NCBI GenBank assembly: GCA_963555825.3
Contig: CAUVXB020000002.1
Location: 3,488,001-3,552,000, forward strand
Origin: Alphaproteobacteria bacterium
GTDB lineage: Bacteria > Pseudomonadota > Alphaproteobacteria > JAAXGF01
DNA length: 64,000 nt
Reading direction: 5' to 3'
Under the pieces are notes generated by a model, which saw nothing but the letters and a program-made list of their open reading frames with translations, was not told the DNA's origin and did not search any database. Position 1 is the stretch's first letter; each line of letters opens with the position of its first letter. Shown here piece after piece: positions 4,265 to 11,698 of the stretch. The position numbers were made by a program, and so were the translations under genes.

Positions 4265-4593
4265 AACAGCAGACGTCCAGCGAGCCCGTCTCCGGCGTCC
4301 GCTTTCGAGCGGTAACCAGACCTAAATCGCGCGACTTCCAGATTTCATGAAACTCGCGTCTGCTTTTGAGCGGAAACCGGACGTCGCAGCGTGGTTCGTC
4401 TAATGTCTGCAATTAGCCGAGGGTGTTGAAGAAGTCGGTTGAGGGTCCAATTTCGTGATTTCCCTGGAACCAACGAAATTTTGATTTCAATGAAATCAAC
4501 GGCTTAGGAAACTCCCGATTTCGAAAATTCGGCCGATTCAGGCTCAAAATCGAATATTCGCGACTTCTTCAACACCCTCAGCCATCAGCAGAC
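4265..4593. repeat. Cluster B of palindromic sites (24-22-25-36-25-22-24 spacing once insertions are removed; begins at 2563)
   Basis: Units 2563-2576+4265-4274, 4297-4321, 4358-4382 and 4405-4418+4584-4593. Homologous to 10619-10776. Confidence 0.8.
4419..4579. mobile_element. 161-bp MITE
   Basis: Perfect 19-bp TIR GAGGGTGTTGAAGAAGTCG, 4-bp duplication AGCC (4415-4418 and 4580-4583), AT-rich non-coding interior. Confidence 0.9.
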
Positions 4594-7400: not shown

Positions 7401-9085
7401 CAGCCTGTGTGAGAACGTTTGCTGCTATTTCTGTGTGGCGCGTCTTTGGGTTTGGATGATCAGTCGGGACGTGTTTTCCGGGATTATGGATTTTCGCCGC
7501 TCGTGCGGGCTTTTCGGCCGGCTGGCGCCGTTGTGAGCCGCGATGTGGCCGGGTATGGGCGTAATTGTCGGCGCAGGGGCGCTATGCCGTCCTGATCGCC
7601 GCGATCAGCGGGTCGATGCCCATGATGTTCATGACGCGCTTGAGATTGTAGGCCAGCACGTGCAAGGCCATCTCGGTCCTCACCCGCTTCAGCGTCTTCA
7701 TCTGGAAGTGCGTCGCGCCCATCCAGGCCTTGAGGGTGCCGAAGGGATGCTCGGCCGTCTCGCGCCGCCGACGCATCGCCTCCGGGTGCTCGTCGAGCCG
7801 CCTCTCGACGGCCTCGAGAATGTGTTCGTGCTGCCAACGGGTGATGCGGTGCTGCTTGGCCGTGGTGCAGCGATGCTTGATGGCGCATCCCTGACAGGCG
7901 TTGGTCCAGTAGCGCCGCATGCTCAGCCCCCTCTCCTGGCTGGTGAAGCGGTAGACCAAACGCTCGCCGGCCGGGCAGCGATAGACATCGTCGGCGGCCA
8001 GATAGACGAAGTCCTGTTTGCCGAAGCGGCCCCTGGCCTTGGCTCCAGAGGTCAGCGGCTTAGGCAACGTGACGGTGATGCCGGCCTGATCGCAGGCCAG
8101 AATCTCCTTGCCGTTGTAGTAGCCGCGATCGGCAACGACATCCAGCTCGTCGGTCTCCAGAGCCGCCTTGGTCTGCTTGGCCATGGCTGAGAGTTGCGCG
8201 CGGTCAGTGCCCTGATTGGTCACCTCGTGGGCGACGATCAGGTGATGCTTGGTGTCGACGGCGGCCTGAACGTTGTAGCCCACCACGCCGGAACCCCGGC
8301 CGCTCGTCGCCATCGAGCGGGCATCGGGATCGCTCAGAGAGACCTGCTGGTCCGGGCTCGCACGCCTCTCGACTTCAAGCGCCTTCAGGCGCCGCATCTC
8401 CTCCTTGAGGATCGCAATCTTGTCGGCCAGACGAGTCGTCTTGGTCGTGCGCGCCAGCGACGGCTCTTGCCGGTCGGCGCTGTCGAGTTGCTGCAGATAG
8501 CGCGCAACGCTCTCCTCGATCTGCGCCACCCGCCGCGCCATCTTGGCCCGCGTGAAGTTCCTGTCCCGGCTGTTGACCGCCTTGAACTTGGCGCCATCGA
8601 TCGCCACGCTCGCCTCGGCAAACAGCCCCAGTTGGCGGCACAGGGCGATGAACTGGGCACAGACCTGGCGGATCGCAGAACCATTGTCCTTGGCCGAAGT
8701 CGGCGATCGTCTTGTGATCCGGCGCCAGCCGGCCGACCAGCCACATCACTTCCACATTGCGCCCGGCCTCCCTCTCGAGCCGACGGCTCGACTGAACCCG
8801 GTTGAGATAGCCGTAGATGTAGAGCTTCAACAAATCGCAAGGATGATAGGCCGGCCGGCCGGTCGCCAGCGGCGCGACCCGGTCGAACCCCAGACCACCA
8901 AGATCGAGCTCATCGACGAAGACGTCGATCGCCCGAACCGGGTTGTCCTCGCCGATCCAGTCTTCCAGGCGCTCGGGAAACAACGTGCCCTGGCTGCGAT
9001 CGACACCCTCCACAAAACGCTTCATCAGACCCTCCCGCCAAAGCACAAGAGAATCATAACACCATCGACGTTTTCACACAGGCTG
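7401..9085 (-). mobile_element. IS1182-family insertion sequence, copy 2
   Basis: TIRs CAGCCTGTGTGA(G/A)AACGT; GGTC duplication at 7397-7400 and 9086-9089. Similar to, but not identical with, copy 1. Confidence 0.92.
7582..9025 (-). pseudogene. IS1182 transposase with +1 frameshift near 8693
   Basis: Split into ORFs 8375-9046 and 7582-8607. TCCTTGGCCGAAG here versus TCCTTGCGGAAG in copy 1. Real mutation or sequencing error. Confidence 0.85.
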
Positions 9086-9166
9086 GGTCACAAGATGCTA
9101 TGAGGCTGAAGGACGCAGCCTCAAGCTCCTTCGATTATTTCAACCTCGATCAGAAGGAGCGACACG

Positions 9167-10300
9167 ATGGCACAGTTTCCGGTATCGACCTCCAATGAAC
9201 ACGCTATTTATGCGGCACTGGAGTTGAGCAAGAACAGCTGGCTTTTGGCGATCCAGGCTCCGGGGCGGGGCAATCCGAGCTTGCATCCGATCAAGGGCGG
9301 CGACGCTGAAGGACTGATGGCCAAGCTGGACGCGGCGCGGGACCGGGTGGTCAAGGTGACGGGTCGAACGCCGACGATAACGCTGTGCTACGAGGCCGGC
9401 TACGACGGCTTCTGGTTGGCGCGGTTCCTCGAGCAGCGCGGCATCGAGTGTCTGGTCATGGAGCCGGCCAGCTTGCGGGTCAACCGCCGGGCGCGGCGGG
9501 TGAAGACCGACCGCATCGATGTCGAGAATATTCTTCATACGCTGATCGCCTGGTGCCGCGGCGAGCGTCATGTCTGCTCCATGGTGGTGATTCCGAGCGT
9601 CGCGGAGGAGGACCTTCGCCGCTCTCATCGGGAACGTGACCGATTGGTCCGCGAGCGAACCGCCCACATCAACCGGATCAAGGGTCTGCTATTCGGTCAG
9701 GGCATTCGCGGCATCAATGTCAAGGCGCGCTACAAGACCTTGACACCGGCGGCGCTGGTCACCGGAGACGGCCGACCCCTGCCGGACCGTCTCGGCCGCG
9801 AGATCGCGCGGGAGATCGCGAGACTGGCCCAGGTCCAAGCGCAGATCGTCGAGGTCGAGCGTGAGCGTGATCAAGCGCCGACACCGTGTGTGGCCACGGA
9901 AAGCAAGCGTCACCAGCTGCTGCGCTTAAAGGGCCTCGGCCCGGCCTTATCCACGACGCTCGCACGGGAAGTCTATTATCGCCAGTTCGCCAATCGCCGA
10001 CAGGTGGCAAGCTATATCGGGATCACGCCCAGTGCCTATGACAGCGGCGACGGGCGCCGCAGCCAAGGCATCTCCAAGGCGGGCAATCGGCTGGCACGGG
10101 TTGCCATGATCGAAGCCGCATGGCTTTGGGTCCGCCATCAACCCGATAGCGCTCTGACCCAGTGGTTCCATGACCGCACCCAAGGTCAGAAGGGGCGCAT
10201 CAGGCGCGTCATGATCGTCGCCCTGGCCCGCAAACTGGCGATCGCGCTTTGGCGGTATCTGGAAACCGGGCTGATCCCGGTGGGTGCTGTCGTCAAATAG
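9167..10300 (+). CDS. IS110-family transposase/recombinase
   Basis: ALELSKNSW, CYEAGYDG, KTDRID and GITPSAYDSG..SQGISKAGN motifs. Confidence 0.93.
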   Translation: MAQFPVSTSNEHAIYAALELSKNSWLLAIQAPGRGNPSLHPIKGGDAEGLMAKLDAARDRVVKVTGRTPTITLCYEAGYDGFWLARFLEQRGIECLVMEPASLRVNRRARRVKTDRIDVENILHTLIAWCRGERHVCSMVVIPSVAEEDLRRSHRERDRLVRERTAHINRIKGLLFGQGIRGINVKARYKTLTPAALVTGDGRPLPDRLGREIAREIARLAQVQAQIVEVERERDQAPTPCVATESKRHQLLRLKGLGPALSTTLAREVYYRQFANRRQVASYIGITPSAYDSGDGRRSQGISKAGNRLARVAMIEAAWLWVRHQPDSALTQWFHDRTQGQKGRIRRVMIVALARKLAIALWRYLETGLIPVGAVVK

Positions 10301-10309
10301 GACTGCGGA

Positions 10310-10590
10310 TCAGCTCAGCGTTCTAACGGGCTTCATTCCCCGATGGGAACGCTTGTTGGCAGGTTGGATGTGTGACTGCATGTCTCCTTGGCGAAGGTGC
10401 CGTCCACAAGATTAGTCCCATCCCCGTCCTGTGATGGTCCATGTATACAGCATTGTGGCAAGCCGGATCGGAGCTGCCGGATATAAGGTGATGCGATCAC
10501 TCGCACGAAACATGGAACTCATCGCAAGACCCGCCCTGGATACAAAGCCATAACCAATGGAAGAGACGATCATGTGGCGTAGATTAAATC
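10310..10590 (+). ncRNA. Putative bridge/seek RNA of the IS1111-type element
   Basis: Position downstream of the transposase, as in IS1111. Two stem/internal-loop units carry segments matching the target and donor junctions (see findings). Boundaries approximate. Confidence 0.7.
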
Positions 10591-10618
10591 CACCTTGACA
10601 GCAAACGCCTCATATAAG

Positions 10619-10776
10619 GAGACATTGGCGGAGGCGGCGTGCGATGTCCGCTTCGGAGCGGTAACCAGACCTAAAAGCCCCATTGCCAAATTTCACGATA
10701 CTCGCGTCTGCTTTCGAACAGAGAGCGGTCCTCGCAGCGTCACTCGCCCAAGGTCAGCCTGTCGCCGGGACCCGAC
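10619..10776. repeat. Cluster C of palindromic sites (24-22-25-35-25-22-24; begins at 7387)
   Basis: Units 7387-7400+9090-9094+10619-10623, 10646-10670, 10706-10730 and 10753-10776. Confidence 0.8.
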
Positions 10777-10905
10777 ATTCGAGAGTCCGCAAAAATGTTA
10801 CCCGTGTACGTCCATCGATGGCGCGACGACCCTATTATCACGCCCATCCTCCCGGTCAACCTGGCGGGTCGCAGCTTCAAGGCGACCGAATGCGGCGTGA
10901 CCCGA

Positions 10906-10969
10906 GCCGGGTTTTCGCATGGCCGGGTTTTCGCATGGCCGGGTTTTCGCATGGCCGAGTTTTCGCATG
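10906..10969. repeat. 16-bp tandem repeat x4 (GCCGGGTTTTCGCATG)
   Basis: Four contiguous copies with one mismatch and no spacers. Confidence 0.95.
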
Positions 10970-11108
10970 GATGGTCACAAAATGGTCACGACTCAGTCAA
11001 TACGGGTCGATATGGATCATGACGGGACGGGCGTGAGAACCCATAATAATGGCGGATTCCCGGACGATGCAGCACGGTCCGAGACGGACCAATACGGCTT
11101 GAATGGAA

Positions 11109-11139
11109 TTTCGAGACCGCCCCGTTCGACCACGCCGGC
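11109..11139 (-). other. 5' half fragment of tRNA-Ser(CGA), probable att-site relic
   Basis: Minus strand GCCGGCGTGGTCGAACGGGGCGGTCTCGAAA resembles the D-arm and anticodon loop of tRNA-Ser(CGA). No T-arm follows. Direct repeat ATGGTCAC-AAA-ATGGTCAC at 10971-10989. Confidence 0.65.
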
Positions 11140-11698
11140 GGCCCGCCGCCGAGAGCGGCGGTCGCGTTTCCGCCGCGCGTCTCGAGTGTGTCGGTCGAGC
11201 CCGTCGAGGGCGGTGCCGTCGCCGATGGTCCTAGATGTTAATCGCCCCGTCGATAAAGGCTCTGGCGCACTGAGGGTACGGGTTTGGTAAAGCGTTAATG
11301 CGCTAGTAAGATGCATTGCGAATCAATCTTGCGCTCTGACGATCTTCGCAAACGTTTCCACGCAACCAAAACCCAAGCCGGCCCATAGGTATGGCTATTG
11401 CCAAACGGCAATCATCGGCCAGGTGCGGTCGGTCGAGTCTGCTACCCTCAGGGCCGGTTTAGGATCAGAAAGCGGTCGATTAAGGTTCACCGCGCAGACG
11501 GTGAAAGTTGACCCGAAGCCGAATTTTCTGGGTTGGCGGCAGGTATGAGGAATTGTGGCTTGCGTGAGCTAGCGATCGATCACTGCGCCGTCCCAGGGCG
11601 CCAAGTTATGATCAAGGAGCCGCTTCCATCGTTCTAGACAGCAAGAATTCTCACAGGTAGCCAATCCGTCCGAAGGCGTTTGCAGATTGCAGCTTGAC

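Follow-up and report, generated by a model that had tools for sequence, protein, structure and literature searches.

The closest described systems to the element reported here are the IS1111-group insertion sequences ISEc11, ISPa11, ISKpn4 and ISPst6 with their seekRNAs (Siddiquee et al., PMC11187229), and IS621 of the IS110 group with its bridge RNA (Durrant et al., PMC11208160; Protein Data Bank (PDB) entry 8wt6); here and below, the cited papers are drawn on in excerpt. The IS1111 layout given in both comes with transposases of typically 330-350 amino acids (aa) and with seekRNAs of 145-170 nt (long form) or 70-100 nt (short form), in which the top-strand match precedes the bottom-strand match in the 5' to 3' direction (PMC11187229), and 93% of IS1111 elements have a predicted bridge RNA, located in their right end (PMC11208160). 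We analysed a 64,000-nt stretch of DNA ("the window") from an Alphaproteobacteria bacterium (assembly GCA_963555825.3, contig CAUVXB020000002.1, positions 3,488,001-3,552,000). Window 9095-10618 is an IS110-family insertion sequence with the IS1111 layout and a DEDD transposase gene. Sequence comparisons indicate that its 3' non-coding region is likely to encode a bridge/seek RNA of the kind described in 2024, and that the element is active or was so recently. The case for such an RNA rests on two independent comparative lines, namely the occupancy of sites within the genome and the covariation of guides with their partners across relatives.

With the seekRNA elements of PMC11187229, the window element shares a DEDD transposase, subterminal repeats with short extensions, a long non-coding region past the gene, and two target matches that overlap at the insertion point, the top-strand match coming first. 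In contrast to those elements as presented there, its transposase is longer (377 aa versus approximately 340), its repeats are at the 7-bp minimum, its target is different and mostly lies in the transposase gene of another element, and it is known from sequence alone. Like IS621 (PMC11208160; 8wt6), it has two loops and four guides, each with the core dinucleotide, that would pair with opposite target and donor strands; however, the IS621 RNA is described as lying ahead of the gene with the left guide first in each loop, whereas here the RNA region follows the gene and the guide order is reversed. Guide order and size of the window RNA region fit published IS1111 seekRNAs.

Boundaries and genomic sites of the element

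The transposase matches the NCBIfam model NF033542, "IS110 family RNA-guided transposase", at 204.4 bits (cut-off 140) and, above cut-off, Pfam PF02371 (60.9 bits) and PF01548 (38.7 bits). Its C-terminal domain resembles those of the PDB transposases ISCro4 (E 9.7e-9) and IS621 (E 6.8e-8; 8wt6 and related entries), and the C-terminal motif G--P----S/T-G, given for the IS110 family in the excerpt of PMC11187229, is present as GITPSAYDSG. The subterminal inverted repeats of 7 bp, at the lower end of the 7-17 bp of the IS1111 group, are kept in relatives, and the non-coding stretches measure 72 nt ahead of the start codon and 318 nt past the stop codon, the longer one being downstream as in that group.

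In the genome from which the window comes (2 contigs, 6.04 Mb in all), 21 matches to the element were found, of which 11 span positions 1-1524 at approximately 100% identity, the others being partial or diverged. The boundaries are confirmed by the 11 full-length copies, all with the same ends, and by uninterrupted sites. In the window, the left junction reads GGTCACAAG (9086-9094)^ATGCTA (9095-9100) and the right junction CATATAAG (10611-10618)^GAGACATT (10619-10626), where ^ marks the insertion point. The most frequent site lies in istA, the transposase gene of an IS21-family element. Empty istA sites (n = 73) read ...CCACAAGGAGACC... with one AAG (written with its variation, ...GGGG[C/T]CACAAGGAGACC...), whereas occupied sites in the same context (9 left and 8 right junctions) read CCACAAG^element...ATATAAG^GAGACC. 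Since AAG is found once in the empty site and at both junctions when occupied, it is the shared core, and the cut point can therefore be placed anywhere inside it. Insertion is thus site- and orientation-specific, with duplication limited to the shared core, as is characteristic of the IS110 family. Across relatives, only the AG of the core is constant. The core of IS621 is CT, as against AG/AAG here; a "CT core" is mentioned in the excerpt of PMC11208160. In one group of relatives (L040-L053, e.g., L041:2398-4036), AAG/AG is retained by the left donor guide and the left junction, but the right junction reads ...CATATAAA^TCG; several independent copies thus have a mismatched core at one of their junctions.

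The 14 left junctions in the genome represent 6 distinct flanks and the 12 right junctions 5, and all of them fit [C/T][C/T]A[C/T]AAG^GAGAC. The five complete sites, with consensus CCACAAG^GAGACAT, are those in istA (GGGGCCACAAG^GAGACCATCGG, 7 full copies), of the window copy (GGGTCACAAG^GAGACATTGG), and at C2:3454581 (TCCACAAG^GAGACGAG), C2:1503417 (CATCACAAG^GAGACATCG) and C2:798605 (GCCATAAG^GAGACATAC). We then counted occupancy over the whole genome for the guide-defined 14-nt target CCACAAG plus GAGACAT, requiring the AG core. No perfect (zero-mismatch) 14-mer site exists in the genome. Sites with one mismatch are occupied in 3 of 3 cases, leaving none empty, and approximately a tenth of the two-mismatch sites are occupied (8 full-length insertions, i.e., the 7 in istA and C2:3454581, plus 2-3 partial ones, versus 97 empty sites, of which 69 lie in istA, 12 in the DNA that codes for the element's own guides and 16 elsewhere). 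At three mismatches, 171 sites are empty and none is occupied. Occupancy graded by mismatches is what guide-directed targeting predicts.

Guide segments and their covariation with sites and ends

An earlier note on the window sequence had proposed a natural IS1111 bridge RNA with target and donor guides downstream of the transposase gene. Every string named in it was found in its place, one of them (CACAAG, 10405-10410) extending to CCACAAG from 10404, and the proposal is borne out by the fit to genomic sites, by covariation, by conserved stems and by the order of the guides. Between GGATG (10366-10370) and CATCC (10419-10423), the target loop carries guides that are complementary to both target strands and overlap at the core, which holds for the six left and five right flanks; the expectation that other copies would not lie at unrelated sites was thus upheld among the genome copies.

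To assess how much of this complementarity arises by chance, the 306-nt non-coding region was shuffled 5000 times with its dinucleotide composition preserved. The 11-mer ATGTCTCCTTG was reached in 2 shuffles, both target matches together in 1, and all four matches in none. By contrast, the 6-mer, 5-mer and 7-mer were reached in 2874, 4779 and 831 shuffles, respectively; these three gain weight only from their placement in conserved loops and their covariation in relatives.

Relatives were gathered by a protein-based scan with one genome per species, keeping the best 80 of 405 (49-89% identity, mostly Alphaproteobacteria metagenome bins). Among the resulting 81 loci (the window plus 80), both ends could be located in 54, which form 26 element types with one representative each; the other 27 were dropped for a missing end or missing contig sequence. 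Guide-partner matches were taken from the alignment with a best-offset score and compared with 20000 permutations, uncorrected for shared ancestry among types. The downstream regions of the relatives have a common scaffold, while the guide-equivalent segments differ. For the right target guide and right flank, cognate pairs score 6.42 of 9 versus 4.45 for non-cognate pairs, and for the left target guide and left flank 4.19 versus 1.44 of 5, values reached by none of the permutations in either case. An alignment-free version gives 14.73 versus 12.76, reached by 0 of 10000 permutations. The change of guide with flank can be read directly in several types: L023 (right target guide ATGTCCGCTT, right flank CGGACATTC), L028 (right ACGTCCGCTT with CGGACGTTC; left GGTAAAG with GGGGTAAAG), L036 (right GCGAAACCGC with CGGTTTAG; left CCGCGAG with ACCGCGAG) and L035 (left CCCTGAG with CCCCTGAG), the right flank of L035 fitting its guide at just 5 of 9 positions.

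A second loop, with guides to both element ends as in a donor loop, shows covariation that is weaker than on the target side but present. The right donor guide and left end score 4.27 versus 3.63 of 5 (0 of 20000 permutations), and the left donor guide and right end 6.92 versus 6.70 of 8 (8 of 20000). In 22 of 26 types, Watson-Crick pairing links the middle base of AGCAT to position 3 of the left end, with three base combinations represented (G:C in 10, C:G in 9 and A:T in 3), and the left donor guide tracks changes at the right end, reading ATATGAG in L059, L076 and L090, GATATAAG in L056 and L057, and CATATAAG in L101.

These donor data bear on the alternative that survives best, which we nevertheless regard as unlikely: that the target loop alone guides, as a short seekRNA of approximately 70-100 nt, while the protein reads the element ends via the subterminal repeats, so that AGCAT and ATATAAG would be scaffold or end-like sequence left unpaired. 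An 82-nt seekRNA with only the target matches sufficed for movement of ISEc11 (excerpt of PMC11187229), the two donor matches are at chance level in the window, the ends vary so little among relatives that the donor covariation signal is small, and the centre-base mismatch of the right donor guide is uncompensated in 4 of 26 types. Set against this are the pairing of that base in the remaining types in three combinations, the left donor guides that follow their right ends where these change, the rarity of permutations matching the observed donor scores, and the donor loops that Durrant et al. proposed for IS1111-group elements (excerpt of PMC11208160).

Predicted RNA structure and mechanism

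Folding the region, as the earlier note had suggested, gave a divided answer. Minimum-energy folds of the single sequence are no better than those of shuffles (z -0.05 and +0.11), whereas an alignment of 24 sequences shows conserved stems with compensatory changes. RNAalifold places such changes in the target-loop closing stem (columns 14:73 and 16:71) and in the hairpin inside the donor loop (131:148, 133:147 and 135:145). In a hand-drawn structure of seven helices, 83.4% of cells are paired, compared to 35-42% with slid partners, and the covariation score is 0.227 versus 0.06-0.12; helices 1, 2 and 6 are paired in 96-98% of cells, with compensatory changes. Past the stop codon and ahead of the target loop, a possible extra hairpin (10322-10358, of the CAACG...CGTTG type) is visible by eye in the closer relatives; RNAalifold gives it just 6 pairs, none compensatory, at an energy near 0.

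Read from the opposite strand, the G-U pairs of the stems, among them an invariant U-G, would become C-A; this assigns the structure to the plus strand and favours a sense-strand molecule. The strand does not discriminate between RNA and top-strand single-stranded DNA, and complementarity, covariation and stems are all read from DNA, so that guides acting as single-stranded DNA in the manner of IS200/IS605, whose subterminal DNA pairs with cleavage and target sites, would look the same; contigs from RNA libraries give no transcript ends or strand that would separate the two. We nevertheless consider a DNA guide very improbable, since RNA that co-purifies with the protein, and a requirement for it, were shown experimentally in this protein's family (excerpts of PMC11187229 and PMC11208160), the NCBIfam model that the transposase matches is named for RNA guidance, and the guides lie approximately 100-240 nt inside the right end, away from any cleavage site.

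Several findings weigh against a bridge RNA with four guides. Taken in the window sequence alone, three of the four guide matches (6-, 5- and 7-mer) are at chance level. Four of the 26 types have a mismatch between the left end and the middle base of the right donor guide (G/G in two, A/G in one and A/A in one), types L044, L053 and L071 fit their own flanks poorly, and the permutation tests ignore the common ancestry of the 26 types. The closing stem proposed for the donor loop is just 58-71% paired (alignment A1), and the folding energy of the single sequence, as noted, is unremarkable. An Rfam scan of 8500-11500 with E up to 1 returned no family, and scans of the integrated copy for sigma-70-like promoters and for terminators returned none of either. 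The transposase, at 377 aa, exceeds the length range quoted for IS1111. RNA-sequencing contigs (three libraries of one study, plus one unlabelled run; 8800-10900) cover the element, including 9799-10536; as they may be DNA-derived and show neither strand nor ends, they count neither way.

That the matches are a coincidence or by-product and the site is chosen by the protein, or by palindromes or other DNA structure, as the three unremarkable matches and the palindromic units beside some sites could suggest, is the least probable explanation of all, given that the 11-mer was reached in only 2 of 5000 shuffles, that guides and flanks change together over 26 types, that the sites used include coding sequence (istA) away from any palindromic repeat context, and that occupancy drops with guide mismatches.

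We thus favour a bridge/seek RNA guiding at both target and donor. We infer the RNA nature of the guide, its binding by the transposase, the circle and the junction promoter from the published mechanism of the family. The RNA would be approximately 170 nt long with two loops. In its target loop (10366-10423), ATGUCUCCUU would pair with the top strand across core and right flank, and CCACAAG with the bottom strand across left flank and core; in its donor loop (approximately 10431-10525), AGCAU would be directed at the left end of the element, and AUAUAAG at the right end together with the core. By analogy with the family, the element would excise as a circle with its ends joined as ...CATATAAG^ATGCTA..., which would place TTGACA beside GATGCT with a 17-nt spacer; such a junction promoter could drive a transcript covering the transposase gene and the RNA together. 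In 23 of 26 types, the distance of TTGAC[A/T/C] from the right end is exactly 18 nt; the pattern used to find ends required the motif to be present but did not require this distance. No circle junction (right end joined to left end) was seen among the RNA-library contigs over 8800-10900. The RNA-bound transposase would hold the circle junction in the donor loop and the target in the target loop, and recombination of the circle with CCACAAG^GAGACAT would take place at the AG/AAG core common to both and in a single orientation.

Table 1. Features of the element and its surroundings (positions in the window).
Feature	Position	Strand	Remarks
IS1182-family element	7582..9090	-	transposase split into two reading frames here; terminus plus 4 nt gives left half-site
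Left target half-site TCACAAG	9088..9094	+	fits left target guide at 6/7; contains shared core AAG (9092-9094)
Insertion sequence	9095..10618	+	1524 bp; IS110-family, IS1111 layout; ends same in all full-length copies
Left terminal extension ATGCT	9095..9099	+	right-donor sequence; partner of donor-loop AGCAT
Left subterminal inverted repeat ATGAGGC	9100..9106	+	5 nt in from end
Transposase gene	9167..10300	+	377 aa; matches to NF033542, PF01548 and PF02371
Predicted bridge/seek RNA region	10362..10528	+	target-binding loop, then donor-binding loop
Target-loop closing stem, 5' strand	10366..10377	+	pairs with 10414-10423; 97.9% of cells paired in 24 sequences; two compensatory pairs
Right target guide ATGTCTCCTTG	10380..10390	+	reverse complement of CAAGGAGACAT; complementary to top strand, core plus right flank
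Small hairpin GGC...GCC between target guides	10390..10401	+	95.8% of cells paired
Left target guide CCACAAG	10404..10410	+	identical to top strand, left flank plus core; would pair with bottom strand
Target-loop closing stem, 3' strand	10414..10423	+	
Proposed donor-loop closing stem, 5' strand	10431..10444	+	pairs with 10510-10525
Right donor guide AGCAT	10449..10453	+	complementary to left end ATGCT
Hairpin inside donor loop	10456..10479	+	97% of cells paired; three compensatory pairs; invariant U-G pair
Left donor guide ATATAAG	10481..10487	+	same as right end plus core
TTGACA	10595..10600	+	18 nt from right end; candidate -35 box, would be completed on end joining
Right subterminal inverted repeat GCCTCAT	10607..10613	+	5 nt in from end
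Right terminal extension ATAAG	10614..10618	+	core at its end
Right target half-site GAGACAT	10619..10625	+	fits right target guide at 7/7
REP-like palindromic unit	10619..10671	+	gives right half-site

Target sequences, possible retargeting and meaning

The main landing site is within another mobile element. Seven of the 11 full copies, and 3 partial ones, lie inside istA of an IS21-family element of approximately 2.57 kb that encodes IstA (517 aa) and the helper ATPase IstB (294 aa; exemplar L022, G000:C1:11300-14100). This host element has about 82-85 nearly identical copies (85 by BLAST), none of them inside the window, which is unusually many for a 6-Mb genome, and the IS1111-type element sits in istA of 9 of 82 (approximately 11%). 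The target corresponds to the codons for RGHKETIG, i.e., coding sequence away from repetitive extragenic palindromic (REP) context, and insertion therefore disrupts the IS21 transposase. The seven istA copies may be separate insertions, or IS21 may have moved one disrupted copy in trans. Another known IS1111-type element also targets the inside of a mobile element, in that case a terminal repeat rather than istA coding sequence. A non-exhaustive literature search of titles and abstracts found no report of an IS1111 element targeting istA or IS21.

Truncated istA copies are present at G000:C2:1618223-1619490, C2:1500117-1501529 and C1:1251402-1251634. Two of them keep the left junction and have lost the 3' part of the element; in these, IS21 sequence resumes upstream of an intact empty target, at a distance of 30-90 bp. 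One truncated copy stops at element position 1297, and the third, a diverged fragment of 88% identity, begins at 1292; both breakpoints fall within the right-target-guide DNA. The truncated copies would be consistent with break repair that drew on an empty IS21 copy and ended at microhomology. Rearranged IS21 sequence at G000:C2:3337150-3337775 (L014, L021) contains what is left of a diverged relative (81% identity across positions 71-404); 45 bp upstream of an empty target, IS21 sequence is joined to a piece of the donor-loop region. The guide DNA itself resembles a target: read on the minus strand, 10380-10393 gives CGCCAAG^GAGACAT, a pseudo-target with two mismatches that is found in 12 copies. 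Together with the right junction of each inserted copy, the right-target-guide DNA also makes up an inverted repeat of 10 nt. Self-insertion into this guide DNA was considered and rejected, as 0 of the 12 pseudo-targets is occupied and the junctions of the truncated copies lack the sequence that self-insertion would give.

The window copy has a different setting. Its left half-site comes from the end of an IS1182-family element and its right half-site from a REP-like unit, and the 13-nt target is therefore a chance composite; the window holds no further good match to it (6 at up to 3 mismatches versus 9.3 expected). The IS1182-family element has approximately 30 copies in the genome, a second window copy ending near 4265. 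Most of the 29 IS1182-family ends in the alignment are followed by REP-like units (xAGACNT...GTCCGCTT..GAGCGGTAAC.GGAC): one end of the element is almost always followed by approximately 4 variable nt and then a REP-like unit beginning xAGAC. This suggests that the IS1182-family element also inserts site-specifically, beside a REP-like repeat family. Just downstream of the window's REP-like unit, a 16-bp unit, GCCGGGTTTTCGCATG, is repeated approximately 4 times head to tail (10890-10969).

REP-like units form the right side of 2 of the 5 complete sites, those of the window copy and C2:1503417. That the outer unit of the repeat clusters is what the RNA is programmed for, as the earlier note held, is hence true for the right half-site of these two sites, but not for the 7 of 11 full copies in istA. 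Its suggestion that the sites are a conserved repeat family is not supported by the window 13-mer but does hold for the clade, where the closest relatives aim at a REP-like hairpin. These nearest relatives (L023, L024, L026, L027, L028, L030 and L031; 76-89% protein identity) carry a right guide ...GTCCGCTT, and those with both flanks seen have the target ...AAAG^CGGACAT inside a GTCCGC...GCGGAC hairpin. The right guide of the window element reads ...GTCTCCTT, differing by CG to TC; its left guide is CCACAAG, and it fits the istA site. REP-targeting elements of the IS110 family have reportedly been described by Tobes and Pareja in 2006. ISPpu9 inserts at an invariant AG common to element and target, its targets being repeated palindromic units (excerpt of PMC12288879). 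It is similar in this respect to the clade, through the hairpin target of the closest relatives and the 2 of 5 sites in the window genome that adjoin REP-like units. However, ISPpu9 is placed in the IS110 group and described there as having no junction promoter, and most insertions here are outside REP-like units. Natural retargeting between close relatives has a precedent in ISEc11 versus ISXne4 (excerpt of PMC11187229).

We tentatively propose, as a possibility somewhat short of even, that the window element has been naturally reprogrammed from a REP-like hairpin to istA, so that a competing IS21 element became its main landing pad and has its transposase knocked out by each insertion.

The known mechanism is unchanged by these findings. 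What they provide is a clean natural case of the bridge/seek RNA rule that can be read straight from a genome: the guides predict the sites, with all near-perfect sites in 6 Mb filled and fewer filled as mismatches increase. The 26 types, with one scaffold and different guides, constitute a natural reprogramming series for the IS1111 branch, which is less studied than IS621. The istA landing site suggests that RNA-guided elements can switch between repeated targets by two or three base changes, and, if the proposed retargeting is true, the IS21 landing pad would be a safe harbour for the invader and, at the same time, a brake on IS21 expansion.

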